Origin: a virus
Lineage: Duplodnaviria; Caudoviricetes
DNA length: 54,827 nt
IMG/VR virus record: IMGVR_UViG_3300032282_002669
Coordinates: 1-54,827 of that record
Direction: 5' to 3' (one strand)
Shown: positions 14,449 to 47,410 of the stretch, in pieces
How positions within the stretch are numbered: the stretch's first letter is position 1
How the letters are laid out: each line of letters opens with the position of its first letter
Position numbers and translations under genes: made by a program
Notes under the pieces: generated by a model
Database searches by the model: none
Seen by the model: only the letters and a program-made list of their open reading frames with translations
Told to the model about the DNA's origin: nothing

Positions 14449-14685
14449 GTGGCAAATACTTCAATACAAATACTAAGGTCGTATGCAAATACGAAACCAA
14501 CAACACTAAATGATGGTGAAATGGCCTATTCTTTTTTGGCCAACACACTTTATATTGGTGACCAAACTGGTCAAGTTATTCGTATTGGTGCATTAACCAC
14601 AACAGAAAATGCAGCAAACACAGTAGTTTTAAGAGATTCAAGTGGTAATATAAATGTTGCCACCGTAGACGGTGGAAATTTCTAA
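14449..14685 (+). CDS. Small fibre-connector protein (GELA-type N-terminal domain)
   Basis: GTG start directly after the TAA. IQILRS...PTTLNDGEMAYS is paralogous to the 14733 and 17064 N-termini; ends in DGGNF. Confidence 0.65.
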   Translation: MANTSIQILRSYANTKPTTLNDGEMAYSFLANTLYIGDQTGQVIRIGALTTTENAANTVVLRDSSGNINVATVDGGNF

Positions 14686-14732
14686 ATAGTAGTAGTAAGT
14701 AATTATTAGCAGCCTCATAATAAGGATAACAA

Positions 14733-17581: not shown

Positions 17582-19645
17582 ATGGCAGCTAATAATTCTA
17601 CTATAGTTCAAATCCGTAGAGGTACTACGGCACAAACAGCATCATTTACTGGTGCTTTAGCCGAACTCACGGTAGATACCGACCAAAAGACTATTGTAGT
17701 CCATGATGGTGTAACTCCAGGCGGTTCTACTTTAGCAACCAAAGCATTTGCTCAAGCGGCTTTCAATGCTGCTAATACTGCAACAGGCACCGTTGGTCAA
17801 TTAGCGTTTGATAAGGCAAACTCTGCCAATGTTTTAGCACAAGCAGCCTTCAATGCAGCCAATACAGCTGCAGGTTCAGTTGGATATTTGGCATTTGCCA
17901 AAGCAAACGGTGCATATGACCAAGCCAATACGGCAACAACACTTGCTCAAGCAGCCTTCAATGCAGCCAATACAGCTGCAGGTTCAGTTGGTTATCTTGC
18001 GTTTGATAAAGCCAATGCAGCCTATGACTTTGCAAATACGATTGCACTTGGTGCCATTGCTAATGTTGCATTAACACATTCCAATACTGCTTCTGGTGCT
18101 ATACCAGCAGTTAATACTTTAAAAGCTGGTGAACCATCTATCAATCTTAATGATGGTAGAATGTTTATTCAGTTAAACAATGGACAAGTAATTGATATTT
18201 CTTCTACTGCTGTTGGTAATACATGGCATGTGGCAACAAATGGTAATGATAACTTTAAAGGTGATACACCTAGTTCTGCTAAAGCATCTATTCGTGCCGC
18301 TGTTGCAGCTGCACAACCAGGTGATTCAGTTATTGTACACTCAGGAACATATAATGAAATTACTCCAATTATTATTCCACAGAATGTTCAAGTACAAGGT
18401 TCTGGTGAAAGAACTTGTTTAGTCAGACCCACTACATCATCAAACAATATTTTCTATGTAAACAATAATAGTTATGTAACTGGATTTAAATTTGTAGATT
18501 ATACTGGTGTTGCTATTTCTTTCCCAACTAGAGTGTTGGAAACTGGTACTGCACAAGCTGGCGGTACAAATACAATCACATTAAATTCTGGTGCCTCAAC
18601 ATACACAGACTACTATAAGAGTATGACTGTTAGTATTACAAGTGGTACCGGTTCAGGTCAATCAGCCAATGTAATCTCATACAATGGTACAACTAAAGTT
18701 GCCACAGTTGATGCAAATTGGGGAACACAACCAACCAGTTCTTCTGTTTACTCTTTAGGTATTCCACTCAGAACAGTACCTGCATCTTCCTCTTCTAGAT
18801 ATACCACATACATTACCGGTAGTCCATACATCTATAACAGTTCTTCAGTAACAACTACAGGAACAGGCATCAGGATTGACGGAGATTTGGCGACAGGCAA
18901 CAAGAGTATTATCTCTGCACAATTCACTCAGGTTAATTCTGGTGGTACTGGTGTGCATGTATTAAACGATGGTTACTCTCAGTTAGTTTCCATATATGGT
19001 ATTTTCTGTGATACGGCATTCTTAGCCGAATCTGGTGGTACCGCTTCAATGGGTAACTGTAACGTAAACTTTGGTAACCGTGGATTGGTTGCCAATGGTA
19101 AAGGTAAACTTGCCATGACTGCTACTGTGGCAAATACAAGTCCACAAGCTTCTTTAACAATGGACCTAAATACAGTAGTAGCAAATAGTTCTTTGGGTAT
19201 AACTGCAACAATACCATATGTTGGTATGATTATGATAATTGATACAGAACCACAAAACTATTATACGGTTACTGAAGCAACTACATTGGCTGGAGGTTCT
19301 ACAACAGTAACTTTCCAATCATCAATTGCAAATACAATTACTAGTGGTACAAATGTTAAATTCTACCAACAAAGTCAGTTGAGAGCTTCAGGTCAAACTT
19401 TTGAATATGTTGGTGCAGGTACATCTGTTGCGGCTATTCCAAAATTTGGTGGTATTGCAAACTCTGCTGCTCAAATTGTTACAATTGGGGAAGGTGCGGT
19501 GTTTGCAACTGCAACTGACCAAAGTGGTAACTTTAGTGTTTCTGATTTGACTATTAATCAGTCAACATCAACAATTACAGGAAGAACTTTTTCTAAGAGT
19601 CTTTTTGCTGAAATGACTCCTTACATACTTGCTCTAGAAAGTTAA
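17582..19645 (+). CDS. Tail fibre/spike with Mtd_N-like N-terminus and beta-helix-type domain
   Basis: VQIRRGTTAQ...ELTVDTD...VVHDGVTPGG (major tropism determinant N-terminal type); WHVATNGND...SIRAAVAAAQPGDSVIVHSGTYNE (pectin-lyase-like entry motif). Confidence 0.7.
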   Translation: MAANNSTIVQIRRGTTAQTASFTGALAELTVDTDQKTIVVHDGVTPGGSTLATKAFAQAAFNAANTATGTVGQLAFDKANSANVLAQAAFNAANTAAGSVGYLAFAKANGAYDQANTATTLAQAAFNAANTAAGSVGYLAFDKANAAYDFANTIALGAIANVALTHSNTASGAIPAVNTLKAGEPSINLNDGRMFIQLNNGQVIDISSTAVGNTWHVATNGNDNFKGDTPSSAKASIRAAVAAAQPGDSVIVHSGTYNEITPIIIPQNVQVQGSGERTCLVRPTTSSNNIFYVNNNSYVTGFKFVDYTGVAISFPTRVLETGTAQAGGTNTITLNSGASTYTDYYKSMTVSITSGTGSGQSANVISYNGTTKVATVDANWGTQPTSSSVYSLGIPLRTVPASSSSRYTTYITGSPYIYNSSSVTTTGTGIRIDGDLATGNKSIISAQFTQVNSGGTGVHVLNDGYSQLVSIYGIFCDTAFLAESGGTASMGNCNVNFGNRGLVANGKGKLAMTATVANTSPQASLTMDLNTVVANSSLGITATIPYVGMIMIIDTEPQNYYTVTEATTLAGGSTTVTFQSSIANTITSGTNVKFYQQSQLRASGQTFEYVGAGTSVAAIPKFGGIANSAAQIVTIGEGAVFATATDQSGNFSVSDLTINQSTSTITGRTFSKSLFAEMTPYILALES
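17840..17991 (+). repeat. 44-bp exact direct repeat (17840-17883 and 17948-17991) in fibre shaft
   Basis: CAAGCAGCCTTCAATGCAGCCAATACAGCTGCAGGTTCAGTTGG read twice. Confidence 0.85.
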
Positions 19646-19649
19646 TAAA

Positions 19650-19988
19650 ATGGCACAAATTCCATTAAATACATTTAAAACAACAACATTCAATGTTACA
19701 ACATCAGACTCTACTGTGTATACTACTCCTGCTGGAGTAACAACAGTAGTTTTGTTGGCACAAGTTTCTAACATTCACGCAACTGATTCTGTAACCATTT
19801 CTGCAAATCATGTGAGAGGTAGCAATACAACTTCTATTATTAAGAACACAACAATACCAGTTAATGATGCTGCAACACTTTTAACTGGTAAATTAATTCT
19901 TCAAGCAGGTGATTCATTTACTGTTAGTGGTAGTGCAAATAGTAAGGGTCAAATGTTATTGTCTTACCTCGAAACCGCTAACGCTTAA
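19650..19988 (+). CDS. Small beta-rich virion adaptor protein
   Basis: LNTFKT...VYTTPAG.TTVVL...GKLILQAGD; resembles 45654-46028. Confidence 0.65.
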   Translation: MAQIPLNTFKTTTFNVTTSDSTVYTTPAGVTTVVLLAQVSNIHATDSVTISANHVRGSNTTSIIKNTTIPVNDAATLLTGKLILQAGDSFTVSGSANSKGQMLLSYLETANA

Positions 19989-19996
19989 TATAAAAT

Positions 19997-21982
19997 ATGT
20001 CTACTAAATCCAGATTAATCAGCGGCAGAGTACCGGTAAGTAACTCAGCCAATGTTACATCAGAACGCTATCAATACCTAGATTTAAGTTCAGCTGAACC
20101 AAATTTAGGCACAAGTAGTGTTGGTGATGTATTAACTTACGACAGTTCATATCCTGGTGGTAGAAGATGGATTCCGCAAAGCGATATTCGTGGATCAATT
20201 GGCCAAGCGGCTTATATTCAGGCTAATACGGCTTCAGCAAATACATTGTATATTTCTGGTGTAGATATTACTCAAAACAACAGAATTTCTACACTAGAAA
20301 CTGTTAACGGAGAACAAAATACTAGCATTAGTATTATTCAAGGTGTTAATGTTACTCAAAATACCAACATCACAAATGTTGATACTAAAGCACAAGCTGC
20401 ATTTGATAAAGCAAATACAGGATTAGCTTCTTCTGGTGGTTCAATCACAGGTTCATTATCTGTTTCACAAAACTTAACTGTTACTGGTAACTTAACTGTT
20501 CTTGGTAATTCAACCACATTAACAACCAATACATTAGATATTGGTGATTCATTAATCTATCTTGCTAATAATAATTTAACTTCTGATGCAGTAGATATTG
20601 GTATTATTGGTCATTACAATGATGGCGCAAATGCTCATGCTGGTATTATCAGAGATCCAAATGCCAAAGAATGGATTTTCTTCAAAGGTTATACACCAGA
20701 AGTTCAATCAAACAATCTTATAGATATTAATCATGCATCTTTTGCTAAAGCAAATGTACAAGCCAGTTACTTCAAAGGTAATGTAGTATTCTCTGATGGT
20801 ACCACTCAAACAAGTGCGGCTACCAATATTGATTCTTATGCTCGTGCAGTAAATGATTTACAAAATACTAACGTTACGGCAGTAAATACTTATGCTGCTG
20901 GTGCTTATGGTGCAGCTAACACCAATGCAACAAATATTACCATTATTCAAGGTGTTGATGTAGGCCAAAACACTAGAATGTCTATTATTGAGGGTGTTGA
21001 TGTAACACAGAATACCAACATTACCGCAGCATTTAATCAAGCAAATTCCGCAAATGTTTTAGCTCAATCTGCATTTGATAAAGCAAATACTGCATTATCA
21101 AATACCAATTTAAATGTTTCTGGAACGCTCAGAATGTTAAATCAGGGTGGTGATGAAGGTGGTGAATTATTTTTAGATAAACCAGCTACAAGCACATCTT
21201 TAGCAGCTGGTATAACAATTGACATTTTTCAAAACAAGTTAAGATTTTTTGAAACTGGTGGTAGTGTTCGTGGCGTCTTTATTGACATGGCAAATGGTGC
21301 CTCAGCAGGAGTTGGTACAGACTTATTAAATCCCGCTTCAGCACCAGATGCGGTAGCAAGAGCTACAGCCAGTGCGGCTTTTGATAAAGCCAATTCTGCT
21401 AATGTTTTAGCACAAGCTGCATTTGATAAAGCAAATACTGCTTCATCCAATACCATTATTATTCAAGGTGTAGACACTACACAGAATACTCGTATGACCG
21501 TGATTGAAGGTGTTGACCTTACTCAAAATACTAATATTACCAATGTTGATACTAAATCACAATCAGCATTTAACAAAGCAAATTCTGCAAATGTATTAGC
21601 TCAAGCCGCATTTGATTATGCAAATACAATTCTTTCTTTAGATAATAATATTGATTCTGTTGCAAGAACAACTGCAAACAACGCCTCATCAAATACTATT
21701 GTAATTCAAGGTGTAGATACTTGGCAGAATACACAGATTACTGCCGCAAGTTCTTTAGCACAAGGTGCCTTTGCAAGAGCAAACTCTGGTGCCAGAGCAA
21801 CAACAAGTAACACAGCACCTACAGGAAATACTGTTGGTGATTTATGGTTAAGTTTAACAGATGAAACATTATACATGTATTCATATGATGGTACAAGTAA
21901 CAATTGGGTAGATATTTCAGGACCTATATTGAGGTCATCTAATATTGTTGTTCAATACACCATCACAGCTAACGTAAGTTAA
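19997..21982 (+). CDS. Mosaic tail fibre protein
   Basis: IIQGVD/QNT and AQAAFDKAN modules; GHYNDG domain; GGDEGGEL motif; C-terminal SNTAPT...GDLW...NNWVDI domain. Confidence 0.75.
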   Translation: MSTKSRLISGRVPVSNSANVTSERYQYLDLSSAEPNLGTSSVGDVLTYDSSYPGGRRWIPQSDIRGSIGQAAYIQANTASANTLYISGVDITQNNRISTLETVNGEQNTSISIIQGVNVTQNTNITNVDTKAQAAFDKANTGLASSGGSITGSLSVSQNLTVTGNLTVLGNSTTLTTNTLDIGDSLIYLANNNLTSDAVDIGIIGHYNDGANAHAGIIRDPNAKEWIFFKGYTPEVQSNNLIDINHASFAKANVQASYFKGNVVFSDGTTQTSAATNIDSYARAVNDLQNTNVTAVNTYAAGAYGAANTNATNITIIQGVDVGQNTRMSIIEGVDVTQNTNITAAFNQANSANVLAQSAFDKANTALSNTNLNVSGTLRMLNQGGDEGGELFLDKPATSTSLAAGITIDIFQNKLRFFETGGSVRGVFIDMANGASAGVGTDLLNPASAPDAVARATASAAFDKANSANVLAQAAFDKANTASSNTIIIQGVDTTQNTRMTVIEGVDLTQNTNITNVDTKSQSAFNKANSANVLAQAAFDYANTILSLDNNIDSVARTTANNASSNTIVIQGVDTWQNTQITAASSLAQGAFARANSGARATTSNTAPTGNTVGDLWLSLTDETLYMYSYDGTSNNWVDISGPILRSSNIVVQYTITANVS

Positions 21983-21991
21983 GGATTAGAA

Positions 21992-23386
21992 ATGGCAATT
22001 AACGAAGGTCAAACAATACAATACACAGTAACCACGACCAATACGGCCGATGGTACAGTATTGTATTGGAAAACTACAGGCAACACCACAAACTCCGACA
22101 TACAAGGTGGTAACACAGGTTCAGTAACGATTACAAACAATCAAGCCGTGTTTAATGTGGAGGTAATTGCTGATACCACTACAGACGGAGTTAAAACTTT
22201 AGGTCTTAGTCTTTCTACAGGATCATTAAATGGTCCTACAGTAGTATCAACATCAAGTCCAATTACAGTTACAGATACTTCACGTTCACCACAATATTCT
22301 CTGTATTTTTGGGGTAGAAATTCTCCAGTAGGCATATCAGGAACAAATGATTCTGTGGATTTACCAAGATCCAGTCCAGTACAAATTGGAACTTCATCGT
22401 GGAATTTAATTTCAGTTGGTGATTATGTTGTTGCCGGCATTCAAACCAATGGAACTTTATGGACTTGGGGAGACGATCAAACAGGATCATTAGGACGACC
22501 AGATAAAATTAATAGATCCAGTCCAACACAAGTTGGTGCCTTGAGTAATTGGTCAAGTGTAGCTTCAGCTAGATACCATTGTGTGGCCGTTAAAACTGAT
22601 GGCACTTTATGGTCATGGGGATTGAGTGGAGGCGGAAGATTAGGAAATAATAGTGGCAATTATTCAAGTAGGTCTAGTCCCACACAAGTTGGATCAGGAA
22701 CAACATGGTCAAGCGTAAAAACAACAGTCTCAGCTTCTTTTGCGTTAAAGACTGATGGTACACTATGGACTTGGGGACCAAATTCTCTAGGTCAATTAGG
22801 TTTAAATTTAGGAAACATTTATAGGTCCAGTCCAGTTCAAATAGGATCACCTAGTGGATATTCTTGGACCACCATTGGAACAGGAGCATATTCCGTTGGT
22901 GGAATAACAAGTGATGGTTCATTATTTACTTGGGGTGGCGACCTTTCAAACTATGGGGTTTTGGGAGTAAATTCATCAGTCAGTAAGTCTGCACCAACAC
23001 AAGTAAATGGTTCTTGGTCAAAAATTGATTTTTGTACTAACGATACTGGTTTTGTCGGAATTAAATCTAATGGAACTTTATGGCAAACCGGATATGGGTT
23101 TTTTATTGGTAACGGAGGCATTAATGTTTCTAGTCCTGTTCAGCTTGGATCCAATTCAGATTGGGTAAATGTTTATGCAAATAAAGGTGGAGCTTTTATT
23201 ACAAAAGCCAATAACGCAGCTTATGTTTTTGGCCAAAATAATTGGGGTGGATTAGGACAAAATAATGCCATTTATCAGTTGGCTACAAACATGGTTCAAT
23301 TGGGTACAACAACTCAATGGAGAAATTTTGCCAGCACAAAAACATCCACAAACGACCAAATCGTGTTTGGTACCACACTGGACTAA
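21992..23386 (+). CDS. RCC1/BLIP-II-like beta-propeller protein with N-terminal Calx-beta/Ig-like domain
   Basis: Repeats of KTDGTLWxWG...LG...SSPxQxG (about 7 blades) after INEGQTIQYTVTTTN...VLYW. Confidence 0.85.
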   Translation: MAINEGQTIQYTVTTTNTADGTVLYWKTTGNTTNSDIQGGNTGSVTITNNQAVFNVEVIADTTTDGVKTLGLSLSTGSLNGPTVVSTSSPITVTDTSRSPQYSLYFWGRNSPVGISGTNDSVDLPRSSPVQIGTSSWNLISVGDYVVAGIQTNGTLWTWGDDQTGSLGRPDKINRSSPTQVGALSNWSSVASARYHCVAVKTDGTLWSWGLSGGGRLGNNSGNYSSRSSPTQVGSGTTWSSVKTTVSASFALKTDGTLWTWGPNSLGQLGLNLGNIYRSSPVQIGSPSGYSWTTIGTGAYSVGGITSDGSLFTWGGDLSNYGVLGVNSSVSKSAPTQVNGSWSKIDFCTNDTGFVGIKSNGTLWQTGYGFFIGNGGINVSSPVQLGSNSDWVNVYANKGGAFITKANNAAYVFGQNNWGGLGQNNAIYQLATNMVQLGTTTQWRNFASTKTSTNDQIVFGTTLD

Positions 23387-23428
23387 CAGAATAAAACCGA
23401 TACGAATTGGTCTAAAAGGAAATAAAAA

Positions 23429-23791
23429 ATGAGTCATTTTGCAAAAGTAGAAGATGGAACAGTAACACAAGTTATTGTTATTGAGCAAGATGTTTTAAAC
23501 ACAGGACATTGGGGTGATCCATCATCTTGGGTACAAACTTCATATAATACTAGAGGTGGTGTTCACACATTAGGTGGAACTCCATTGCGTAAAAACTTTG
23601 CTGGTATTGGGTACACATACGACAGAGTTCGTGATGCATTTATTCCACCAAAACCTTTTGCTTCTTGGAATTTAAATGAAGATACTTGTTTGTGGGATGC
23701 ACCAACTGAAATGCCAGTTGAAGAAGGTAAAATGTTTTATTGGGATGAACCAACAGTATCTTGGTTGGAATTTGTTCCACCGACAGAATAA
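23429..23791 (+). CDS. Conserved phage protein (MSHFAK family), possible fibre chaperone
   Basis: MSHFAKV...WVQTSYN...RKNFAGIGYTYD..RDAFIPPKPFASW.L.E.TC.W.AP; SD AAGGA. Confidence 0.7.
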   Translation: MSHFAKVEDGTVTQVIVIEQDVLNTGHWGDPSSWVQTSYNTRGGVHTLGGTPLRKNFAGIGYTYDRVRDAFIPPKPFASWNLNEDTCLWDAPTEMPVEEGKMFYWDEPTVSWLEFVPPTE

Positions 23792-23794
23792 ATA
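23787..23794 (+). promoter_or_regulatory. Late promoter variant AATAAATA
   Basis: Overlaps the stop of 23429, upstream of 23818. The same variant occurs at 29782-29789. Confidence 0.5.
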
Positions 23795-23817
23795 TAGAAT
23801 AATCTAGGACTAATTAC

Positions 23818-25347
23818 ATGGCTTTTCCACTATCACCAGCAAATAATCAAACTGCTCTAGTTAATGGCATTGTTTATCAATGGAATGCCGGACTTGGTGT
23901 TTGGAAAAGAAACGGTTCAGTTAACTCAATTGAAGTAGGACAGTTATTACTTAACTCTGCACAACAAACAACATCAAACGGATCAGGAACTTTAATTGTT
24001 TCTGGTGGTGCAGGCATAACAGGTAATGTTTATACTGGTGGAATCTTTATTACTGGTGCTGCAAACGGTATTACCTTTGCGGATGGTTCAGTACAAACTA
24101 CTGGTGCTACAGGTATAGATTCTTATGCTAGAACTACGGCTAATACAGCTTCATCTAATACTGTAGTGATTCAAGGTATAGATACAGCACAGAATACCCG
24201 TATGACTATTATTGAGGGCGTAGACACTACTCAAAATACTAATATTACCATTATTCAAGGTGTGGATGTTGGTCAAAATACTCGTATGGGTATTATTGAG
24301 GGCGTAGACACTACTCAAAATACTAATATTACCATTATTCAAGGTGTGGATGTTGGTCAAAATACTCGTATGGGTATTATTGAAGGTGTTAATACAACTC
24401 AAAACACTAATATTACAGCCGCTGATACTAAAGCACAAGCTGCTTTTAATGCCGCTAATACCAAGTTCTCATCTTCTGGTGGTACAATTACAGGTGATAC
24501 AGTAGTAACAGGAAACTTAACTGTAACTGGTACACAGTTCTATGCCAATACAGTAAACTTAACTGTTGTTGATAACATTATTACTCTAAACTCCAATGTA
24601 ACCGGCGCACCCACATTAAGTGCTGGTCTTGAAGTTAACAGAGGTTCATCTTCCAATACTAAGTTACTTTGGTCTGAAGCAAATACATCATGGGAATTTA
24701 CCAATAACGGATCATTCTATGATAAGATTGCTGGTTTAACATATGCTAATGCAGCATTTGCAGCTGCTAATACTAATGCAACCAACATTACTATACTTCA
24801 AGGTGTAGATGCAACACAGAATACCAACATTACTAATGTTGACACTAAAGCACAAGCCGCTTTCGATAAAGCAAACTCAGCCAATGTACTGGCACAGGCT
24901 GCATTTAATACTGCCAACTCTGCTGGTGCGGTAAGTATCACCGATGATACAACAAATAGTGGAACATATTATCCATTGTTATCGGTATCCGCCACAGGCA
25001 CACTCTCTACTTCAAATACATCCAGTTCTAAATTATCTTATGTACCATCAACTGGTACACTAACAACTGTAGACTTGAATACAACATCTGATATCAAGTT
25101 TAAAGAGAACATCCAAACGATTGATTCGGCATTGGAAATGATAAATAGAATAGACGGAGTTTCGTTTAACTGGAAAGAAACTGGTAAGAAATCTTATGGT
25201 GTGGTTGCTCAGCAGTTACAAGAAGTTTTACCAGAATTAGTTTCAGAAGAAGAACGTGGTTTATCTGTTTCGTACCTACCAATTATTGCAATTCTTATTG
25301 AGGCAATTAAAGAACAACAAAAACAAATAAACGATTTAAAAAAATAA
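23818..25347 (+). CDS. Tail fibre with C-terminal intramolecular chaperone (peptidase S74)
   Basis: TSDIKFKENI...GVSFNWK...GVVAQ...LPELV...SVSY...LIEAIKEQ is the S74 autocleavage domain. MAFPLSP N-terminus; QNT heptad repeats. Confidence 0.88.
   Translation: MAFPLSPANNQTALVNGIVYQWNAGLGVWKRNGSVNSIEVGQLLLNSAQQTTSNGSGTLIVSGGAGITGNVYTGGIFITGAANGITFADGSVQTTGATGIDSYARTTANTASSNTVVIQGIDTAQNTRMTIIEGVDTTQNTNITIIQGVDVGQNTRMGIIEGVDTTQNTNITIIQGVDVGQNTRMGIIEGVNTTQNTNITAADTKAQAAFNAANTKFSSSGGTITGDTVVTGNLTVTGTQFYANTVNLTVVDNIITLNSNVTGAPTLSAGLEVNRGSSSNTKLLWSEANTSWEFTNNGSFYDKIAGLTYANAAFAAANTNATNITILQGVDATQNTNITNVDTKAQAAFDKANSANVLAQAAFNTANSAGAVSITDDTTNSGTYYPLLSVSATGTLSTSNTSSSKLSYVPSTGTLTTVDLNTTSDIKFKENIQTIDSALEMINRIDGVSFNWKETGKKSYGVVAQQLQEVLPELVSEEERGLSVSYLPIIAILIEAIKEQQKQINDLKK
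24208..24375 (+). repeat. Perfect 84-bp tandem duplication (28 aa)
   Basis: 24208-24291 equals 24292-24375 (IIEGVDTTQNTNITIIQGVDVGQNTRMG). Confidence 0.9.
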
Positions 25348-25380: not shown

Positions 25381-27123
25381 ATGGCAATCAAAATTAATAA
25401 TACTGTTGTTATAGACAACAGTAGAAATGCGACAATTAATGCAATCACAGCAAACACTATAACTGCCAACGGCACAGACCTTGGTACTGCTGTTGCTCAA
25501 GCCTACTTACTGGCCAATAATGCAAACCAAACAACTACATCTAATACTGCACCAACCAGTCCTAAAGTTGGTGATGCATGGTATGATACAATAACCGGTA
25601 TTACTTTTAGATACACCAACGATGGCACAAGTAATAACTGGGTAGATATTACAGGTCCACAGAATTCTGGTTACATTTATCAGTCATATGCAATTACTCC
25701 AAATACATCAACTGTTAGTGAAACTACTGGTAACACAGTAAGTTATACAGTCACAACCACCAATACTGCCGATAACACCGTATTATATTGGACCAATTCT
25801 GGTACAACTGTTGCATCAGACTTTAAAGATTCTGTAAGTAATGGTACGGTTACAATTGTAAACAATTCTGGAACATTTACAAGGTCAGTAATTGCGGATT
25901 TGGTGACAGAAGGTTCCGAAACGATTGTAATGAATCTTAGAACCGGTTCAAATACCGGTACAATCGTAGCCGTTGCAAGTTCTGTGTCCGTAGGTGATAC
26001 TTCACAGGATCCATATTACGCTATGTACTCTACAGGATATAATCAGACTGGTGAATTAGGCCTCAATGATAGAGGTGTTTATAGATCCAGTCCAACACAA
26101 ATAGGATCACAAAGCAATTGGAGAGTAATTGCATCAGGTGGAGCTAGTAGCTCAGGATTTAGTGCTGCAATTAAAACCAATGGAACTTTGTGGTTGTGGG
26201 GTCAAGGCAGTTATGGAAAATTGGGACAAGGTGATAACATTTCACGATCTTCACCCACACAAGTGGGAGCTTTAACATCTTGGTCGGATGTTGTTATTGA
26301 GCGAAATGCTCAAGCTTGCATGGCTATTAGAACTGATGGTACAATATGGACATGGGGAAATAATGCTTACACCGGAATACTTGGTCAGAATCAAGGTTCG
26401 CCGTTTTCTTTTTATGATAAAAACAGTCCAACACAAGTAGGAACAGACACAAGTTGGAGTAAAATTGGTGCAACAGCTGGCGTCTTTGCATCCATCAAAA
26501 CCAATGGCACTCTGTGGTTGTGGGGAAGTAATAGTTATGGAAAATTAGGCCTTGGTGATACAGATAATAGATCCAGTCCAACACAATTAGGATCAGGAAC
26601 AGATTGGGCCATCTTGCCAAAATCAGGTGGCGGGTCTTGGATGGGTGCTATTAAAACCAATGGTACTTTGTGGACATGGGGAGGAAATTGGCAGACTCAA
26701 ACAGGATCAAATAGATCCGGCAATTTTAATCCTGTTTTACCAACACAACAAACAGGATCAAATTGGTCTAAACTTGCAATTGGATCGGACCACGGACTTG
26801 CTATCAAAACTGACGGCACCTTATGGGGTTGGGGAAATAATTCAAGAAATCAATTAACAAATAGCGTAGCTGGCTATGGAAATATAACTCAGATAGGTAC
26901 TTCAACAACATGGGCAGAGGTTTCTACAAGCCAATATACAACTGTTGCATTAAAAACTGATGGCACGATATGGGGATGGGGAAGAAACGACTTTGGCCAA
27001 TTAGGGTTAAATGGTACTGTCGGTGGTTACTCAATAAGTTCTCCAAGACAAATTGGAAGTGCAACAAATTGGGGTGGAGTATCTGTTGGATCAATGACGT
27101 TACTAACAACAAATTCACAATAA
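25381..27123 (+). CDS. RCC1-like propeller protein with MAIKIN anchor, GDxW domain and intact Calx-beta/Ig-like domain
   Basis: MAIKINNTVVIDNSRN; SNTAPTSPKVGDAWYD...NNWVDI; YAITPNTSTVSE...ADLVTEGSET; about 7 RCC1 blades. Confidence 0.85.
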   Translation: MAIKINNTVVIDNSRNATINAITANTITANGTDLGTAVAQAYLLANNANQTTTSNTAPTSPKVGDAWYDTITGITFRYTNDGTSNNWVDITGPQNSGYIYQSYAITPNTSTVSETTGNTVSYTVTTTNTADNTVLYWTNSGTTVASDFKDSVSNGTVTIVNNSGTFTRSVIADLVTEGSETIVMNLRTGSNTGTIVAVASSVSVGDTSQDPYYAMYSTGYNQTGELGLNDRGVYRSSPTQIGSQSNWRVIASGGASSSGFSAAIKTNGTLWLWGQGSYGKLGQGDNISRSSPTQVGALTSWSDVVIERNAQACMAIRTDGTIWTWGNNAYTGILGQNQGSPFSFYDKNSPTQVGTDTSWSKIGATAGVFASIKTNGTLWLWGSNSYGKLGLGDTDNRSSPTQLGSGTDWAILPKSGGGSWMGAIKTNGTLWTWGGNWQTQTGSNRSGNFNPVLPTQQTGSNWSKLAIGSDHGLAIKTDGTLWGWGNNSRNQLTNSVAGYGNITQIGTSTTWAEVSTSQYTTVALKTDGTIWGWGRNDFGQLGLNGTVGGYSISSPRQIGSATNWGGVSVGSMTLLTTNSQ

Positions 27124-27137
27124 TAGGTAAAATATAA

Positions 27138-28364
27138 ATGTCTTTTCCATTATCACCAGCCAATAATCAAGTTACGCTTGAAAATGGTATATCGTATACC
27201 TATAATGCTTCAAGGAATTTTTGGTATAGAACACCCGCAACTGCGTTAGCTTCAATTACATCTAATACATTTACTGTTCTAAATTCAATCATATTTTCAG
27301 ATGGTACTACACAAACATCTGCTGCTAGTCCAAATGATTCATATGCTAGAACTACTGCTAATACTGCAACCAATAATATTACTGTTATTCAAGGTGTAGA
27401 TGTAGGTCAAAACACTAGAATGACTGTAATAGAAGGTGTAGATGTAACACAGAACACCAACATTACTATAGCAAATAATGCAGCTCAAGCTGCGTTTGCA
27501 CAAGCCAATGCAACTGCTGGTGGATTAACTACCGCCAATAGTAGAATCACGGTTGCTGAAGGTGTCGATACTACCCAGAACACTAATATTACCATAGCAA
27601 CCAATGCTGCAACAGCCGCATTTGCTCAAGCTAATGCAACTGCTGGCGGATTAACTACCGCTAATAGTAGAATCACGGTTGCTGAAGGTGTAGACACTAC
27701 TCAAAATACTAATATTACCAATGCGACTAATGCTGCAACGGCAGCTTTCACTAAAGCAAATACTGCAATCACCACATCAGGTGGTTCAATCACCGGTTCA
27801 TTAAATGTATCACAAGATTTGGCCGTTACAGGAAACTTAACTGTATTAGGAGCCACCACTTCCATTAACACAACTTCTTTTGTTGTTAGTGATTCTTTAA
27901 TCGTGATGGGTACAGGAAATTACACCTCAGATTTATTGGATATTGGATTAACGGCTCACTACAACGATGGCACTAACGCACATGCCGGTATTGTTCGTGA
28001 CGCTACAACCAAAGAATGGTATGTGTTCAAAGGTTACACACCAGAACATTCTGCAAATAACAACATTGATATTAATCATGCATCATTTGCTAAAGCAAAC
28101 GTTAACGCAAATTATTTTAAAGGTAACGTAATATTTCCAGACGGCACAGTTCAAGCTACAGCCGTAAATTTAAGAATGACTGGAAGTAGTACTCCACCAT
28201 CCACTCCAACAGTCGGTGATTTGTGGTATGATACAGATATCGATGTGTTGCTTCGTTACACATATGACGGATCATCAAACAATTGGGTCGATATTACTGG
28301 ACCAACAATTGGTAGGTCGTCATATATTCGACCAACATACTTAATATCTGCTAACGTAGCATAA
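27138..28364 (+). CDS. Mosaic tail fibre protein
   Basis: MSFPLSPANNQ N-terminus; 42-aa heptad-multiple repeats; HYNDG domain; C-terminal PTVGDLWYD...NNWVDI. Confidence 0.75.
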   Translation: MSFPLSPANNQVTLENGISYTYNASRNFWYRTPATALASITSNTFTVLNSIIFSDGTTQTSAASPNDSYARTTANTATNNITVIQGVDVGQNTRMTVIEGVDVTQNTNITIANNAAQAAFAQANATAGGLTTANSRITVAEGVDTTQNTNITIATNAATAAFAQANATAGGLTTANSRITVAEGVDTTQNTNITNATNAATAAFTKANTAITTSGGSITGSLNVSQDLAVTGNLTVLGATTSINTTSFVVSDSLIVMGTGNYTSDLLDIGLTAHYNDGTNAHAGIVRDATTKEWYVFKGYTPEHSANNNIDINHASFAKANVNANYFKGNVIFPDGTVQATAVNLRMTGSSTPPSTPTVGDLWYDTDIDVLLRYTYDGSSNNWVDITGPTIGRSSYIRPTYLISANVA

Positions 28365-28373
28365 GGACTAAAA

Positions 28374-29786
28374 ATGCCATTAAATGAATCTAGTTCAAAC
28401 ACTTCGATACAATATACAGTAACAACGACCAGAGTAACTGATGGTACAGTATTATATTGGAAAACTACAGGTAGTATTGCTAACTCTGATATTGTAGGAG
28501 GTAATACTGGTACAATTACAATTAATAATAATCGTGCAGTATTCAATGTTACTATTATTGCAGACAACGTGACTGAAGGTAATGAAACATTAGGTATTGC
28601 AATTTCTACTGGTTCACAGAGTGGACCAACAGTAGTATCAACGGCCAATCCAATTACAGTTAATGACACATCATTAGATCCATATTACGCTATGTACGCT
28701 ACAGGATATAATGTGAATGGAGAATTAGGTCTCAATGATAGAACCAATAGGTCCAGTCCAACACAAATAGGATCAGCAACAAATTGGAGATTAATTGCAA
28801 CTGGTGGATATGGCAATAGTGGTGGTTCAGGAGTTAGTGCTGGAATTAAAACCGATGGTACTTTATGGTTATGGGGATTTGGTCAATATGGCCGATTAGG
28901 CCAAAACGATACAATTTCACGTTCTTCACCTACACAAGTAGGAGCTCTAACATCTTGGTCTGATGTTGCCATTAGTGGTAATGCAAGCCATACAATTGCT
29001 CTCAGAACCGATGGTACATTATGGTTATGGGGAAAAGGTAATTATGGACAATTAGGTCAAGGTAATACAAGTCATCAATCCAGTCCAGTAGCAGTAGCAG
29101 GAACAAATTGGAGTAAAATTGGTGTAAGTGCGGGCCTGTCTGCAGCAATTAAAACGGACGGAACATTGTGGACCTGGGGAAATAATAGTTATGGAAAATT
29201 AGGACTTGGAGATAATACTAACAGAAATAGCCCGGTACAAGTAGGAACAGGAACAGATTGGTCTTATTTGAATAAATCAGGTGGTGGTGTTGCTATGGGT
29301 GCTATCAAAACCAATGGTACTTTATGGACGTGGGGAGGAAATTGGGAAACTCAAACAGGATCAAATAGAGATACTAGCGGAAATCCTTTCTATGGAGTAA
29401 GAAGTCCTGTACAACAAACAGGATCAAATTGGCTTAATCTTTATATGGGGTATGGTCACGGACTTGCAATCAAAACTGATGGTACGTTGTGGGGTTGGGG
29501 AAATAATTCAAGAAACCAATTAACAAATAGCGTAGCTGGTTATGGAAATATAACTCAAATAGGCAATGAAACAACGTGGGCTGCTATAGGAACTAATAGA
29601 TATGAAACTATTGGATTAAAAACTAATGGCACCATATGGGGTTGGGGTAAAAATTCTAGTGGACAATTAGGACTAAGTGAAGGTGATTATCCTTACATAA
29701 GTTCTCCAAGACAAATTGGAAGTGCAACAAATTGGGGTGCAGTAGCCACTGGATCAATGACTTTACTAACCACAAATTCACAATAA
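28374..29786 (+). CDS. RCC1-like propeller protein with N-terminal Calx-beta/Ig-like domain
   Basis: N-domain closely resembles that of 21992; propeller closely resembles that of 25381. Confidence 0.85.
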   Translation: MPLNESSSNTSIQYTVTTTRVTDGTVLYWKTTGSIANSDIVGGNTGTITINNNRAVFNVTIIADNVTEGNETLGIAISTGSQSGPTVVSTANPITVNDTSLDPYYAMYATGYNVNGELGLNDRTNRSSPTQIGSATNWRLIATGGYGNSGGSGVSAGIKTDGTLWLWGFGQYGRLGQNDTISRSSPTQVGALTSWSDVAISGNASHTIALRTDGTLWLWGKGNYGQLGQGNTSHQSSPVAVAGTNWSKIGVSAGLSAAIKTDGTLWTWGNNSYGKLGLGDNTNRNSPVQVGTGTDWSYLNKSGGGVAMGAIKTNGTLWTWGGNWETQTGSNRDTSGNPFYGVRSPVQQTGSNWLNLYMGYGHGLAIKTDGTLWGWGNNSRNQLTNSVAGYGNITQIGNETTWAAIGTNRYETIGLKTNGTIWGWGKNSSGQLGLSEGDYPYISSPRQIGSATNWGAVATGSMTLLTTNSQ

Positions 29787-29812: not shown

Positions 29813-31282
29813 ATGTCATTTCCGATATCACCATCAAATAACCAAATAGCATTAGTAAATGGTATTGAGTATTACTACCTTACCACTAAAGGTGCATGGT
29901 ATCGCTATGGCGATGGAAGTGCCAATGTAATTACATCTAATACATTTCAAGTATTAAGTTCAATCATATTTTCTGATGGTACTTCACAAACAACTGCAGC
30001 AAATCCTACCGATGCATATGCTAGAACTACAGCCAATACTGCAACAAGTAATATTGTAATTCTACAAGGTGTCGATACTACTCAGAACACCAACATTACA
30101 ATTGCTAATAATGCGGCTCAGGCTGCGTTTGCACAAGCTAATGCAACTGCCGGTGGTTTGACCACAGCTAACACTAACATAACAGTAATACAAGGTGTGG
30201 ATGTAGGTCAAAATACTCGTATGACAATCATTGAGGGTGTTGATACAACTCAAAACACCAATATTACTATAGCAACTAATGCTGCAACGGCAGCTTTTGC
30301 TCAAGCCAATGCTACTGCCGGTGGATTAACTACGGCAAACACCAGATTAACTGTTGTTGAAGGTGTTGATACTACTCAGAACACCAACATTACAATTGCC
30401 AACAATGCAGCTCAAGCTGCGTTTGCACAAGCCAATGCAACTGCTGGTGGATTAATAACTGCTAACGCCAGAATTACCATATCTGAAGGTGTAGATGTAA
30501 CACAGAACACCAATATTACAAACACAACTACTTTAGCACAAGCTGCTTTTGATAAAGCCAATTCTTCTTATACATTGGCCAATACTGCAAATAGTAAATC
30601 AACTACTAGTTCTACTTCATTTACATCTGTTGTAGATACATTTACAGGTAATGGAAGTCAAACACAGTTTACTCTGTCTGTTGTACCTGATACAGAGAAC
30701 AGTACATTTGTTTATTTAAATGGTGTGTATCAAAACAAATCCACATACTCGGTAGTTGGTGCCAATGTTGTATTCACCGATACAGCAACTGCAAATGATA
30801 CTATTGAAGTAACTACTGTTGCTGGTAGTGTTATGAATGTAAGTCCTGCTGGTTACTCAACAAGAATCTATCAAGGTAATGGATCAACCACAGCATTTAC
30901 AATTAGTGCAGGTCAAACTGCCAACACCGTTATGGTGTTCAACAACGGTATCTGCCAATTCCCCGTTACGGACTATACAGTAAGCGGAACTACACTAACA
31001 TATATTGTAGCACCACAGTCCGATGAAACGGTACAGATTCGGGAACTACCAATAAATACATTAGTTGCAATCACACAACCATATTTAAGAAGATATACTG
31101 CCAATGGAGTTCAAACAACATTTACAGTAACATCAGGTCAATCAGCCAACTCAATGTTTGTATATGAGAATGGTGTATGTCAAATGCCTATTAATGATTA
31201 CACAGTAAGTGGAACAACATTGACCTTTACTACAGCACCTAGTTCAGATAAAGTAATTCAAATTAGAGAAATGCCAGTTTAA
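29813..31282 (+). CDS. Fibre/hub protein with three C-terminal FTGNG-type repeats
   Basis: MSFPISP N-terminus; QNT/AQAAF shaft; three domains of pattern xNGxxTxFT...V..NG..Q...Y.V.G. Confidence 0.7.
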   Translation: MSFPISPSNNQIALVNGIEYYYLTTKGAWYRYGDGSANVITSNTFQVLSSIIFSDGTSQTTAANPTDAYARTTANTATSNIVILQGVDTTQNTNITIANNAAQAAFAQANATAGGLTTANTNITVIQGVDVGQNTRMTIIEGVDTTQNTNITIATNAATAAFAQANATAGGLTTANTRLTVVEGVDTTQNTNITIANNAAQAAFAQANATAGGLITANARITISEGVDVTQNTNITNTTTLAQAAFDKANSSYTLANTANSKSTTSSTSFTSVVDTFTGNGSQTQFTLSVVPDTENSTFVYLNGVYQNKSTYSVVGANVVFTDTATANDTIEVTTVAGSVMNVSPAGYSTRIYQGNGSTTAFTISAGQTANTVMVFNNGICQFPVTDYTVSGTTLTYIVAPQSDETVQIRELPINTLVAITQPYLRRYTANGVQTTFTVTSGQSANSMFVYENGVCQMPINDYTVSGTTLTFTTAPSSDKVIQIREMPV

Positions 31283-31291
31283 GGATAAAGA

Positions 31292-33001
31292 ATGTCATTT
31301 ACAAAAATATCAAGTACAAATATTGCCAATGGTGCCATTACTTTTGCACAAACAGCTGCTGGTGCTTTTACATTAATACCTACAATTACTAATGTTCAGA
31401 TTGCTGATGCATCATATAATGTTCTAGATGATACGGCAGCAAATACTGGTGGTGGTTATGTTGTTATTACTGGATCAAATTTTGGATCTAATTCACAAGT
31501 AATTATTGGTACAACTAATGCTACCAGTACAACATATGTAAATTCAACCACTATTCGTGCTCAAGTACCTGCTTTATCCGCTGCAACATATTCTCTTTAT
31601 GTTGTAGATAATACTACTGGCGCTACTGCAATTAAAGTAAATGGTTTAACATACAGTTCATTTCCAGCATGGTCAACAGGATCAACATTAACCAATCAAC
31701 AATCAGGTACTTCTTTTGGAATTAATGTAAGTGCATCATCAGATTCTAATATTACATATGCAAATACAACAGCATTACCTACTGGCACTACATTAGCTGC
31801 TAATGGATATTTTTCAGGTACAGTTACGGTGGGTTCACCAACAACATACTCATTTGATGTTAAAGCCACAGACGTTGAAAATCAAGATGCAACAAGAACA
31901 TTTAGTTTAACAGTAATATTGCAAGAAATAAAATTATGGTCTTGGGGTTTAGGTAACGTTGGTCAATTAGGAATTAATACATCACCATCTTATAGATCTA
32001 GTCCGGTGCAAATAGGTGCGGGCACAAATTGGTATGGTTTAGGTTCTTCGAGCCTGAATCACTTTGCTATAAAAGATAATGGTACGTTATGGAGTTGGGG
32101 TGGCAACCAAAATGGAGCAAATGGCCTAAATGATATAGTTTATAGATCCAGTCCAACACAGGTTGGTTCATTAACAAATTGGTCAAAAATTAGTGCAGGT
32201 GATGGTGCTGTTGTAGCTATTAAAACTGACGGTACTATGTGGTCATGGGGATGGAATGCATTTGGCCAGTTAGGATTAAATAATGGTTCAGTAAATAAAT
32301 CCAGTCCAACACAAATAGGATCAGGAACAAATTGGTCTTTTGCTGAAATTTCTGGCCAAAGTGGACTGTATGGAGTTGCAATCAAAACTGACGGCACACT
32401 ATGGAGTTGGGGATTAAATAACAACGGACAATTGGGTGTAAACAATCGTACCAGCAACGAGTCCCCGGTACAAGTAGGTGCAGGCACAAATTGGAGTAAA
32501 GTTACTATAGCTATGAAAGCTACATTAGCAATTAAAACTGATGGTACATTATGGTCTTGGGGTGATGGTAGTAATGGATGTTTAGCTGATAATAATTTCA
32601 ATGCCTATAGGTCTAGTCCGGTTCAAGTTGGTGCAGGTACAACTTGGTCATTAATTTCTGCTGGAGCTCATGTATTGGCTATCAAAACTGATGGCACACT
32701 GTGGTCTTGGGGACAAAATGCTAGCGGACAGTTAGGACAAAACGATGTTAATTCTTTAGCATCACCCAGACAAATAGGTACAGATACCAGTTGGAGTAAA
32801 ATTTCTGCAGGTAGTTCAGTTTCGGGTGTAATTAAAACTAATGGTACTTTATGGATTTGGGGAGGTGGTACCAACGGACAATTAGGACTAAATGACTCTG
32901 TGGGTCGTTCAAGTCCAGTACAAGTTGGTACAGGAACAAATTGGTCACAAATAATGTCAACAAAAGGTTCTACTTCTATGTTAGCATTAACTTTAAATTA
33001 A
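31292..33001 (+). CDS. IPT/TIG + Ig-like + RCC1 propeller protein
   Basis: PTITNV...GGYVVITGSNF (IPT/TIG-like); LPTGTTLAANG..SGT...F.V.ATD (He_PIG/cadherin-like); about 7 RCC1 blades. Confidence 0.85.
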   Translation: MSFTKISSTNIANGAITFAQTAAGAFTLIPTITNVQIADASYNVLDDTAANTGGGYVVITGSNFGSNSQVIIGTTNATSTTYVNSTTIRAQVPALSAATYSLYVVDNTTGATAIKVNGLTYSSFPAWSTGSTLTNQQSGTSFGINVSASSDSNITYANTTALPTGTTLAANGYFSGTVTVGSPTTYSFDVKATDVENQDATRTFSLTVILQEIKLWSWGLGNVGQLGINTSPSYRSSPVQIGAGTNWYGLGSSSLNHFAIKDNGTLWSWGGNQNGANGLNDIVYRSSPTQVGSLTNWSKISAGDGAVVAIKTDGTMWSWGWNAFGQLGLNNGSVNKSSPTQIGSGTNWSFAEISGQSGLYGVAIKTDGTLWSWGLNNNGQLGVNNRTSNESPVQVGAGTNWSKVTIAMKATLAIKTDGTLWSWGDGSNGCLADNNFNAYRSSPVQVGAGTTWSLISAGAHVLAIKTDGTLWSWGQNASGQLGQNDVNSLASPRQIGTDTSWSKISAGSSVSGVIKTNGTLWIWGGGTNGQLGLNDSVGRSSPVQVGTGTNWSQIMSTKGSTSMLALTLN

Positions 33002-33004
33002 TCC

Positions 33005-33142
33005 ATGCCAACTAAATTAATTGGAGATAGCTTTGCTCCAGGATCCATTACAGTTAACCAAATTACCGTTGGTGCTTTAAATTCCAAAATATTTTCTGTA
33101 CAAGTAACAAATTCATCTTACCTAATAAATAAAACAATATGA
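33005..33142 (+). pseudogene. 5' relic (45 codons) of an additional IPT-RCC1 paralog
   Basis: Translates as MPTKLIGDSFAPGSITVNQITVGALNSKIFSVQVTNSSYLINKTI*. It aligns with the 33139 N-terminus (MTTQITANNITAGTITSTQLLPGSLAPRISSISICDASY) up to SSY. Not in the supplied ORF track. Confidence 0.7.
33124..33131 (+). promoter_or_regulatory. Late promoter variant AATAAATA, 7 nt before ATG
   Basis: Directly upstream of 33139; no SD. Confidence 0.55.
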
Positions 33143-46030: not shown

Positions 46031-47410
46031 ATGAGTAATAGAAATTTTGGTGGTTTTATTACCACCGGTACCGTTTCAGCCAATTCTACATACGCTTCTG
46101 GTGTTTGGTCACTTTCTCAATATCTATATCAAAAATCCAATGGTTCGTGGCCAGGATCTCAATATTATTCTTTGTTTTCTGGTAATGCAACTTCTGTTAA
46201 TGAAAGTTCAAACACCACCTTTTATGCAAACACCATTAATATACCCAATAATACAACTGCATATTGGACAATAGAACACATTACAACCAGTGCAAATGAT
46301 TTTGTTGAAACTTCCAATTCTTTTGTAATTAGTAATAATACAGGTTCATTTATTGTTCGTACTGTTGGTGATTTAACAACCGAAGGATCTGAAAGCTTTC
46401 AGATAGCCATTAGGCAAGACAGTAATGTTGGCCAAATTTTAGCAACCAGTTCAATAATTACTTTAAATGATACTTCATTATCTCCATTACCAAGTATTAG
46501 TTTCTTACTTGTTGGTGCTGGCGGAAATTCATTTGGAAATTCTAATGGTAATTATTCTGGAGGCGCAGGTGGTGCAGGAGCATTTGAGGCCACAGGATTT
46601 ACAGGTTATGTTACAAGTAATACCTACACCGTTCAGATAGCTGCAGCTGGTGGCAGTTCTACTGTACTTTCTGGTACCTTTGATATATTAGGTAATACTG
46701 ACATGTATGGTACTGGTGGTGGTTATGGTGCATACAAGACTAATGCCGGAACAACTTTTGCCGGTTATAATGGTGGAGGAGGTGCAGTTTGGCCTACTTA
46801 CAACGGCAGTCGTTGGAACATGGATAGTAGTAGACAAGCTGGCGGATCAAGTGGCCAAAGTAGTGTTCAAAGTACATATAGTAGTCAATATCCTGGTGTA
46901 TTTAAAAATTATGGTGGTAATGGAGTAAATGGCCAATATTATAGTATTGAAGGATCATCAAATCTTGGTTCTTGGGCATGGGCTCATGGTGGAGGAGGAG
47001 GAGCTAGTGGCGTTGCTGCCAATACAACAGTAAATCTTGGCACAATCATTGCATATGTTGATGGTGGACCCGGCATGTCCAGCAATATTTCAGGAACACT
47101 ATCTTATTATGGTGGTGGCGGCGGTGGATATGGATATGGAGCCACCGGTGGTATTGAAAAATTTGGTGTTGGTGGATTAGGTGGAGGTGCCAATACGGCT
47201 GTTTATAATAGCACCCAAAACAATGGAGCTCCCAATACTGGAGGAGGATCAGCCGGCAGCGGACTTGGCGGAAGTGGAGTTGCTTATTTTAGATTTCCAG
47301 ATTCTCAGATATCTGCAAATACAACGGGTGGAGCAACTTCATATCTTTCTGGCACAGATTGTGTCGTTTATTTTTATTCATCCGGAACCATAAGGTTTTC
47401 TAGAAAATAA
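46031..47410 (+). CDS. Glycine-rich tail adhesin-like protein with Calx-beta/Ig-like domain
   Basis: GGFI...ASGVWSL N-terminus; SVNE...GDLTTEGSESF domain; FLLVGAGG...YYGGGGGG...NTGGG...GGSGVAYFR glycine-rich domain. Confidence 0.7.
   Translation: MSNRNFGGFITTGTVSANSTYASGVWSLSQYLYQKSNGSWPGSQYYSLFSGNATSVNESSNTTFYANTINIPNNTTAYWTIEHITTSANDFVETSNSFVISNNTGSFIVRTVGDLTTEGSESFQIAIRQDSNVGQILATSSIITLNDTSLSPLPSISFLLVGAGGNSFGNSNGNYSGGAGGAGAFEATGFTGYVTSNTYTVQIAAAGGSSTVLSGTFDILGNTDMYGTGGGYGAYKTNAGTTFAGYNGGGGAVWPTYNGSRWNMDSSRQAGGSSGQSSVQSTYSSQYPGVFKNYGGNGVNGQYYSIEGSSNLGSWAWAHGGGGGASGVAANTTVNLGTIIAYVDGGPGMSSNISGTLSYYGGGGGGYGYGATGGIEKFGVGGLGGGANTAVYNSTQNNGAPNTGGGSAGSGLGGSGVAYFRFPDSQISANTTGGATSYLSGTDCVVYFYSSGTIRFSRK

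Follow-up and report, generated by a model that had tools for sequence, protein, structure and literature searches.

Introduction

In chaperone-usher pili, the C-terminal G strand missing from each pilin is supplied by the N-terminal extension of the next subunit, while in the engineered SpyTag/SpyCatcher system, a split CnaB2 immunoglobulin (Ig)-like domain, a short terminal strand peptide and the rest of the domain reconstitute the fold. In phages, separately encoded receptor-binding proteins are docked on fibres or adaptors, as in T4 gp36/gp37 and the branched tailspike systems. Here, a locus was analysed in IMG/VR record IMGVR_UViG_3300032282_002669 from a virus of the Caudoviricetes (54,827 nucleotides, all of which were covered and are referred to below as the window; genes are named by their first nucleotide), in which one Ig-like domain is cut between the tail-fibre gene 19997 and the following gene 21992, which encodes a head protein with an RCC1-like beta-propeller. 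The last eight codons of the fibre gene are homologous to the first strand of the domain and are under purifying selection, and residues of the fibre end covary by type with two residues of the head. In our judgement, the C-terminal strand of the fibre probably completes the sandwich of the head in trans, with two matched versions keeping the pairs apart and a constant socket receiving exchangeable heads.

The arrangement resembles chaperone-usher pili in that an Ig-like sandwich lacks one edge strand, which would come from the end of a second polypeptide, and the joining would be non-covalent. However, it is the N-terminal A strand that is missing here and the C-terminus of the partner that would give it, whereas pilins lack the C-terminal G strand and receive an N-terminal extension; there is also neither chaperone nor usher, the fold is Calx-beta-like, the joint would link a fibre to a head rather than form a polymer of like subunits, and the binding itself is a prediction. 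No pilin family in Pfam was matched by these proteins, and the split domain would thus work like donor-strand complementation in pili by analogy, without being a member of that family. As with SpyTag/SpyCatcher, a short terminal strand peptide is separated from the rest of its fold, and the two natural pairs, if orthogonal, would be comparable to sets of orthogonal tags and catchers, but the phage split is natural and concerns the first strand, not the last. An isopeptide lock as in pilins and SpyCatcher was considered and rejected, there being no sign of the triad and the only near-invariant head lysine, K27, being arginine in several homologs. The T4 gp36/gp37 and branched tailspike systems are similar in that shaft and receptor-binding part come from neighbouring genes and heads are exchanged between phages; unlike the present case, in which one monomeric domain is divided between genes, they dock whole domains or interdigitated trimeric segments. 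In the part of the literature reached by a full-text search, no account was found of a single domain divided between the genes for a phage fibre and its head.

Results

Interruption of the domain between two genes

Gene 19997 ends with ...NNWVDISGPILRSSNIVVQYTITANVS and is followed in one frame by TAA (21980-21982), GGA TTA GAA (21983-21991) and the ATG at 21992, which opens a gene of 464 codons beginning MAINEGQTIQYTV / MAINEGQTIQYTVTTTNTADGTVLYW, the propeller following after about 103 residues. The original prediction had described one domain interrupted by these 15 in-frame nucleotides (TAA GGA TTA GAA ATG), uninterrupted in gene 25381 and intact in gene 46031, and was right in every detail: the former reads NNWVDITGPQNSGYIYQSYAITPNTSTVSETTGNTVSYTVTTTNTADNTVLYW and the latter YYSLFSGNATSVNESS. 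Removal of *GLEM brings the split pair into line with the fused form over 12 residues each (YTITANVS+AINE vs YAITPNTS+TVSE), and in a MAFFT alignment the split rows have five extra residues. The fibre knob that precedes the tail of 19997 also makes up the N-terminal part of gene 25381, where knob and domain are joined in a single chain (...NNWVDITGPQNSGYIYQSYAITPNTSTVSETTGNTVSYTVTTT...). A cut identical in kind to that between 19997 and 21992 lies between genes 27138 and 28374 of the same window, and these two are referred to below as the type-2 pair. The RCC1 assignment was made with Pfam, gene 21992 matching PF00415 with an E value of 1.6e-29 (102.6 bits, cut-off 21.7) and PF25390 with 2.3e-39, the latter below its curated cut-off, and gene 25381 matching PF00415 with 120.2 bits and PF25390 with 260.7 bits (cut-off 150).

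Occurrence of split and unsplit domains

Residues 1-103 of the head were searched against a collection of 5.8 billion proteins, yielding 113 homologs, of which 104 begin at the identical methionine (M[PAS][LVI]NE..); the others comprise three with the variant start MPLGE, one N-terminal fragment and five with upstream residues, including the unsplit (T)Y.[IV].P strand. Loci were collected from nucleotide data with the domain alone as query, a whole-head query having been dominated by the propeller (the N-domain was reached in only 5 of 79 loci). By this procedure, 10 of 74 IMG/VR loci (seven distinct) and 17 of 79 metagenome loci were found to be split, some contigs being common to both collections, and in the remaining 64 and 62 loci, respectively, (P)TY.[IV].P..S[VI]NEG is read in one frame with no stop there. 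Every split junction has TAA, nine nucleotides and ATG, giving 33 instances with those of the window itself and 21 distinct sequences over 180 nucleotides, and both the cassette and the order of fibre gene then head gene are constant across the split loci. The end of the fibre is equally fixed: all 53 type-2 fibre homologs stop at the same residue (TY[LS]I[ST]AN[VA][SAV]), as do the 21 distinct junctions, and none is shorter or longer.

An exhaustive search of 1.84 billion representatives placed 2065 members in the domain family at E values up to 0.001, often in tandem, the longest arrays having 32 matched stretches. The match falls at the first residues of the protein in 15 of the best 150 family members, all within a close clade of 47-80% identity, so that the split looks like one event in one lineage; by the same sequence comparison, the unsplit domain appears to be the ancestral state. 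Two other forms were observed among the family proteins. Giant proteins of up to 4312 residues (P0170-P0187) contain the domain in up to 32 tandem matched stretches, and a split-type head of 812 residues (P0005) starts with the incomplete domain, followed by four further domain stretches and the glycine-rich C-terminal domain PF21722.

Support for the stop codon from other data, on which the original prediction had made its interpretation depend, was obtained from contigs of two other studies (X6 and X11), the only ones bridging the junction. Relative to the window, these contigs have differences at 21977-21979 and at 21989, none listed in the TAA, and no insertions or deletions. The run that may be the source (X1) gave short pieces that do not reach the junction, several bins lacked coverage, and no RNA run was listed as containing the sequence. 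The unchanged TAA in X6 and X11, the presence of the cut in 104 database proteins and 27 additional loci, and purifying selection on both halves refute the idea of an error in sequencing or assembly, or of a pseudogene formed recently, the probability of which is negligible.

Fold of the domain and the strand encoded by the fibre gene

The unsplit domain of gene 25381 was modelled with AlphaFold2 from an alignment of 49 rows, giving a mean predicted local distance difference test (pLDDT) score of 90.7 and a predicted template modelling score of 0.82. In this model SYAITP (residues 11-16, block pLDDT 98), TVS (residues 20-22) and TVSYTVTTT (residues 28-36) are strands, and the position of the cut corresponds to the turn between the first two, strands A and A', so that the head starts at strand A' with an Ig-like fold lacking the N-terminal strand A. 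The tyrosine position of strand A is Y or F in 45 and its isoleucine position I, V or L in 46 of the 49 unsplit homologs; these inward-facing Tyr and Ile/Val residues are retained in every split fibre tail. Donor-strand complementation in trans, as in pilus assembly, had been put forward in the original prediction; its structural premise was borne out, since the fibre end is homologous to strand A and this is a confident strand in the 25381 model, whereas the likeness to pili extends to the mechanism only.

Foldseek comparison of the model with the PDB returned the Calx-beta (CBD1) domains of NCX1/CALX at the top (2dpk, 3e9t and 3ead), with antibody-type domains also among the top matches. These Calx-beta domains, the best structural matches of the unsplit phage domain, aligned with E values of 2e-4 to 4e-4 (2dpk 2e-4), TM scores of 0.49-0.54 (3ead 0.54) and identities of 15-19%, a likeness at the level of the fold only. 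Although the Calx-beta pattern ..V.EG..V.F.V.. D...EG.E.F is similar to that of the phage domain, neither the fused nor the split domain matched Calx-beta (PF03160) in Pfam at E values up to 1. In BFVD the best matches were phage proteins (TM scores of 0.75-0.83), and Prochlorococcus phage P-SSM2 contributed two of them, one a virion structural protein and the other with a glycine-rich domain; the copies in T4-like cyanophages (P-SSM2, Q58ME0 and Q58MM8; Synechococcus phage S-CAM3, A0A1D8KIR0) have the same fold, with TM scores of 0.76-0.83 and identities of 22-33%, and sit in structural and glycine-rich head proteins.

The complex of head residues 1-105 (104 rows) with the last 65 residues of the fibre (9 rows) was also predicted, and the scores of 0.21 and 0.05, from runs made without controls, lie below the mark of 0.32 and weigh neither for nor against an interaction.

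Selection on the fibre tail

For the last eight fibre codons, the proportions of synonymous and nonsynonymous differences were 0.56 and 0.20, respectively, corresponding to a ratio of nonsynonymous to synonymous change (dN/dS) of about 0.22 when the pairwise comparisons of the 21 junctions, not independent of one another, are combined. The tail is under purifying selection. Together with the fixed end of the fibre, this low ratio indicates that the tail does not behave as a useless remnant, which should drift or be truncated.

Two fibre types and covariation with the head

Two types of fibre end are distinguished, type 1 with ..N-I-V-V-Q-Y-T-I-T.. in 13 and type 2 with ..Y/F-I-R-P-T-Y-L/Q-I/V-S/T.. 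in 8 of the 21 distinct junctions, and the columns N/Y, V/R, V/P and Q/T separate them completely. Twenty heads were long enough for alignment (12 type 1, 8 type 2), and among the 120 columns of their N-domains only two separate the types completely, namely residues 17-18, where type-1 fibres go with N-T and type-2 fibres with R/K-V. Both residues have a normalised mutual information of 1.00 with fibre type; the values for residues 14, 16 and 19 are 0.57, 0.23 and 0.44, respectively, and those for residues 2-11, which are nearer to the fibre gene, do not exceed 0.15. Any perfectly separating column arose in 19 of 5000 random labellings, a control that ignores relatedness. Among 107 split heads from the database, 54 have NT, 53 have [RK][VI] and none is mixed, and both classes include RCC1-like and other heads.

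The surroundings of this island behave differently. The start variants PLNEGQTVQ, AVNESNTIQ and PVNESNTIQ are each seen with both fibre types, and on a tree of the remaining 80 head residues fibre type requires 7 changes compared with a shuffled mean of 6.4, which together indicate that shuffling or homogenisation between the types has affected the domain on either side of residues 17-18, the part tied to the fibre. Two heads of one contig with different fibre types (L161 and L166) cluster on this tree with support of 88/82, a grouping that suggests homogenisation of paralogs within a genome, residues 17-18 excepted.

Mean-field direct coupling analysis (DCA) was carried out on unsplit copies, 1238 domain hits being collected from the head homologs, the type-2 fibre homologs and the members of the wider family, of which 951 distinct copies with strand A kept (effective number 900) were used over 112 profile positions and 5886 pairs. 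In the resulting couplings, strand A is paired like the rungs of an antiparallel ladder with the end of strand B, through 10-23 (rank 34 of 5886), 10-27 (rank 45), 8-32 (rank 52, position 8 being the best partner of 32), 7-30 (rank 75, each being the best partner of the other), 6-30 (rank 157) and 6-31 (rank 251). By colinear mapping, positions 31-32 correspond to head residues 17-18, positions 5-7 to VVQ or RPT of the tail and position 8 to the tail tyrosine; consequently, the type-specific residues of fibre and head are predicted to come face to face if the tail replaces strand A. As the ranks are modest, we take this model-based placement as support and not as proof.

The cassette between the genes

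The cassette has the consensus TAAGGA[TCA]TA[AG][AG]AATG, with 3 of its 15 positions varying among the 21 distinct sequences, and is conserved far above adjacent synonymous sites. It contains a Shine-Dalgarno-like AAGGA six nucleotides before the ATG and a spacer of nine nucleotides after the stop, and all 21 distinct junctions thus have the layout of a coupled gene pair, with stop and start a few nucleotides apart and TAAGGA, six nucleotides and ATG in series. From this layout, we take the cassette to be a probable signal for coupled translation, by which the head would be made at the place and rate of the fibre. The same nine-nucleotide TAA(A)GGA...ATG junction joins unrelated gene pairs at 2473 and 31292, and the frame shared by fibre and head can be explained by a preferred distance from stop to start.

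Features of the window and neighbouring genes

The coordinates of the two split pairs and of the unsplit copies are given in Table 1.

Table 1. Positions in the window of the split pairs, their parts and the unsplit copies of the domain.
Feature	Positions	Strand	Basis or remark
Type-1 tail-fibre gene, 661 aa	19997..21982	+	Open reading frame (ORF) and translation; repeated QGVD..QNT and alanine-rich segments
Fibre C-terminal knob, conserved (..TAPTGNTVGDLW..YDG.SNNWVDISGP)	21785..21925	+	Alignment of 9 fibre C-termini
Ten-residue linker ILRSSNIVVQ, last residues VVQ type-specific	21926..21955	+	Fibre-type columns
Putative donated strand A, YTITANVS (last 8 fibre codons)	21956..21979	+	Homologous to SYAITP of 25381
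15-nucleotide cassette TAA GGA TTA GAA ATG: stop / Shine-Dalgarno-like / start	21980..21994	+	Found in all 21 distinct junctions
Head N-domain, Calx-beta-like sandwich without strand A, from strand A' (AINE)	21992..22300	+	AlphaFold2, Foldseek, homolog starts
Head residues N17-T18, putative socket specificity positions (NT with type-1 fibres)	22040..22045	+	Type separation, covariation
RCC1-like beta-propeller, presumed receptor-binding head	22301..23386	+	Pfam
Unsplit paralog, 580 aa, a single chain with a short anchor, the knob, the entire domain (25654-26025) and a propeller	25381..27123	+	
Type-2 fibre gene, 408 aa, end ..IRPTYLISANVA; strand A at 28338-28361	27138..28364	+	ORF
Second cassette, TAA GGA CTA AAA ATG	28362..28376	+	Sequence
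Second head gene, 470 aa, start MPLNESSSNTSIQYTV: split N-domain with R20-V21 (28431-28436), then RCC1-like propeller	28374..29786	+	
Further whole domain copy	46193..46489	+	E 7.3e-9; in gene 46031..47410, C-terminal part glycine-rich

A sixth domain match at 14569-14709, upstream of gene 14733, was rejected as probably due to chance, being weak (E 0.004) and containing two internal stops. The window is estimated to be 32% complete and carries all its large ORFs on one strand, among which the fibre-like genes form a long run. Genes neighbouring 19997 match tail-fibre PHROGs; the 19997 protein itself had no family match in Pfam or PHROG and nothing meaningful among PDB sequences, where one T-cell receptor chain appeared at an E value of 0.014. 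Against cultured phages, the head N-domain gave no tblastn match at E values up to 1e-3, and blastn of positions 19500-24000 returned only short matches, covering 2-5% of the query and lying inside gene 23429..23791.

RCC1-like repeat text (SSP.Q.G..T.W) ends eight genes of the window (21992-23386, 25381-27123, 28374-29786, 31292-33001, 33139-34836, 34837-36627, 36648-38450 and 51399-53666), of which 21992 and 25381 were checked against Pfam and the other six were judged by eye; eight such propeller heads are an unusually large number for one phage. A third pair, fibre-like and propeller-like (29813..31282 and 31292..33001), has the cassette TAA GGA TAA AGA ATG at 31280-31294 with a second in-frame stop, and the protein of 31292..33001 has an N-terminal segment of its own in which the split domain is not visible by eye. 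The fibre-like gene 23818-25347 encodes a C-terminal Peptidase_S74 intramolecular chaperone domain (Pfam, 3.1e-16), and its N-terminus (MAFPLSPANNQ..) is similar to those of genes 27138 and 29813. Between 41025 and 44971 there are overlapping small genes with TGA and TAG stops, in contrast to the TAA-ending structural genes.

Discussion

In the mechanism that we propose, a Calx-beta-like Ig sandwich, ordinarily the link between a fibre shaft and its distal head, would have been cut once in one phage lineage, when five codons (stop, GGA, YTA, RRA and ATG) entered the turn that separates strand A from strand A'. With this cut, the fibre would end in strand A, carried on a ten-residue linker behind a small knob, while the head would begin with the rest of the sandwich and carry an RCC1-like propeller or, in relatives, the glycine-rich domain PF21722. 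After translation, the strand of the fibre would re-enter its old place beside strand B of the incomplete head sandwich, and this insertion would fasten the head to the fibre. Two versions appear to coexist, ..VVQYTIT.. with N17-T18 and ..RPTYLIS.. with R/K-V/I, from which we propose that each of two fibres in one virion may pick its own head, the propeller being the presumed receptor-binding part. Donation in trans is favoured because of the fixed fibre end, the purifying selection on the tail, the covariation of residues 17-18 and the placement of these residues by DCA.

Several points weigh against this reading. Fused forms occur in the same genomes (gene 25381 in the window and L126 on the contig of L087), and splitting is therefore not required for function. 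The knob and linker also differ by fibre type, so residues 17-18 could read these instead of the strand, the type-specific sites are only about 60-120 nucleotides apart, and the two types may trace to a single divergence, in which case the 20 rows are not 20 independent events. The pairing of strands A and B rests on a secondary-structure string, on modest ranks (34-251 of 5886) and on the topology of Calx-beta domains. Finally, when the junction was modelled as one chain with TAA read as Q, QYTITANV was predicted as a strand (block pLDDT 92) with the extra residues in a turn (block pLDDT 86), but this shows compatibility only, since the alignment contains unsplit homologs.

The explanation that deserves most attention besides donation in trans is that the cut is a scar of gene fission, the head being docked mainly via other surfaces, such as the knob against the N-domain or the propeller, and the strand being of minor importance or serving the fold of the fibre itself. 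The knob is indeed conserved as well as type-specific, and the head domain keeps 9 of 10 predicted strands and might fold alone; nevertheless we hold this to be unlikely, as a useless tail should drift, whereas 53/53 type-2 homologs and 21/21 distinct junctions share the end residue with a dN/dS of about 0.2, and covariation in unsplit copies sets the type-specific residues of the tail opposite head residues 16-18. It is less likely still that fibre and head do not interact at all, being assembled at different places with only a historical adjacency and ancestry. Many other propeller genes of the window do have N-terminal anchors of their own, but the head proteins in question have no other N-terminal anchor and start inside the domain, the gene order is constant, and residues 17-18 form a type-specific island.

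The original prediction had offered, as its alternative, readthrough of the UAA yielding a fused minor form. Such programmed readthrough, with the fused fibre-head protein built into the virion, is not supported by the present analysis, and we rate it as very improbable. It would accord with the frame kept in 21/21 distinct junctions, the absence of a further stop from the nine-nucleotide spacer and the predicted folding of the chain with TAA as Q, in which the tail is a strand. However, the form of the junction is generic in the window (2473 and 31292, the latter with a second in-frame TAA), TAA is the stop of 35/41 window ORFs, RNA folding at the stop does not exceed that of shuffled sequences (z -0.11), no tRNA gene was found in the window, itself an estimated 32% of the genome, and the conserved AAGGA and ATG are explained by a start site. 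TAA followed by G is, moreover, an efficient terminator in E. coli.

On a wider scale, and with less assurance than for donation in trans at this locus, we suggest that a widespread lineage of uncultured large phages may use a naturally split Ig-like domain to join fibre and head, the plug being an 8-residue C-terminal fibre tag and the socket the incomplete Calx-beta-like sandwich of the head. Two orthogonal versions (VVQ-Y../NT and RPT-Y../[RK][VI]) would sort two different heads onto two different fibres of one virion, and propeller and glycine-rich heads would be freely exchanged behind an unchanging socket; this broader claim is a tentative one. For the reading of metagenomes, a practical rule follows, namely to look for a fibre tail ending in ..Y.I.ANVS and, after it, a protein starting M..NE.. 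whose residues 17-18 are NT or RV. The two peptide-domain pairs, short, orthogonal and naturally evolved, might also be tried for joining proteins or for exchanging the heads of laboratory phages. Should the fibre strand indeed be donated in trans, this would be a natural assembly outside pili, and in a virus, that proceeds by completing the fold of a partner, and it would explain how receptor-binding heads can be interchangeable on a fibre and what separates the two fibre-head pairs within a cell.

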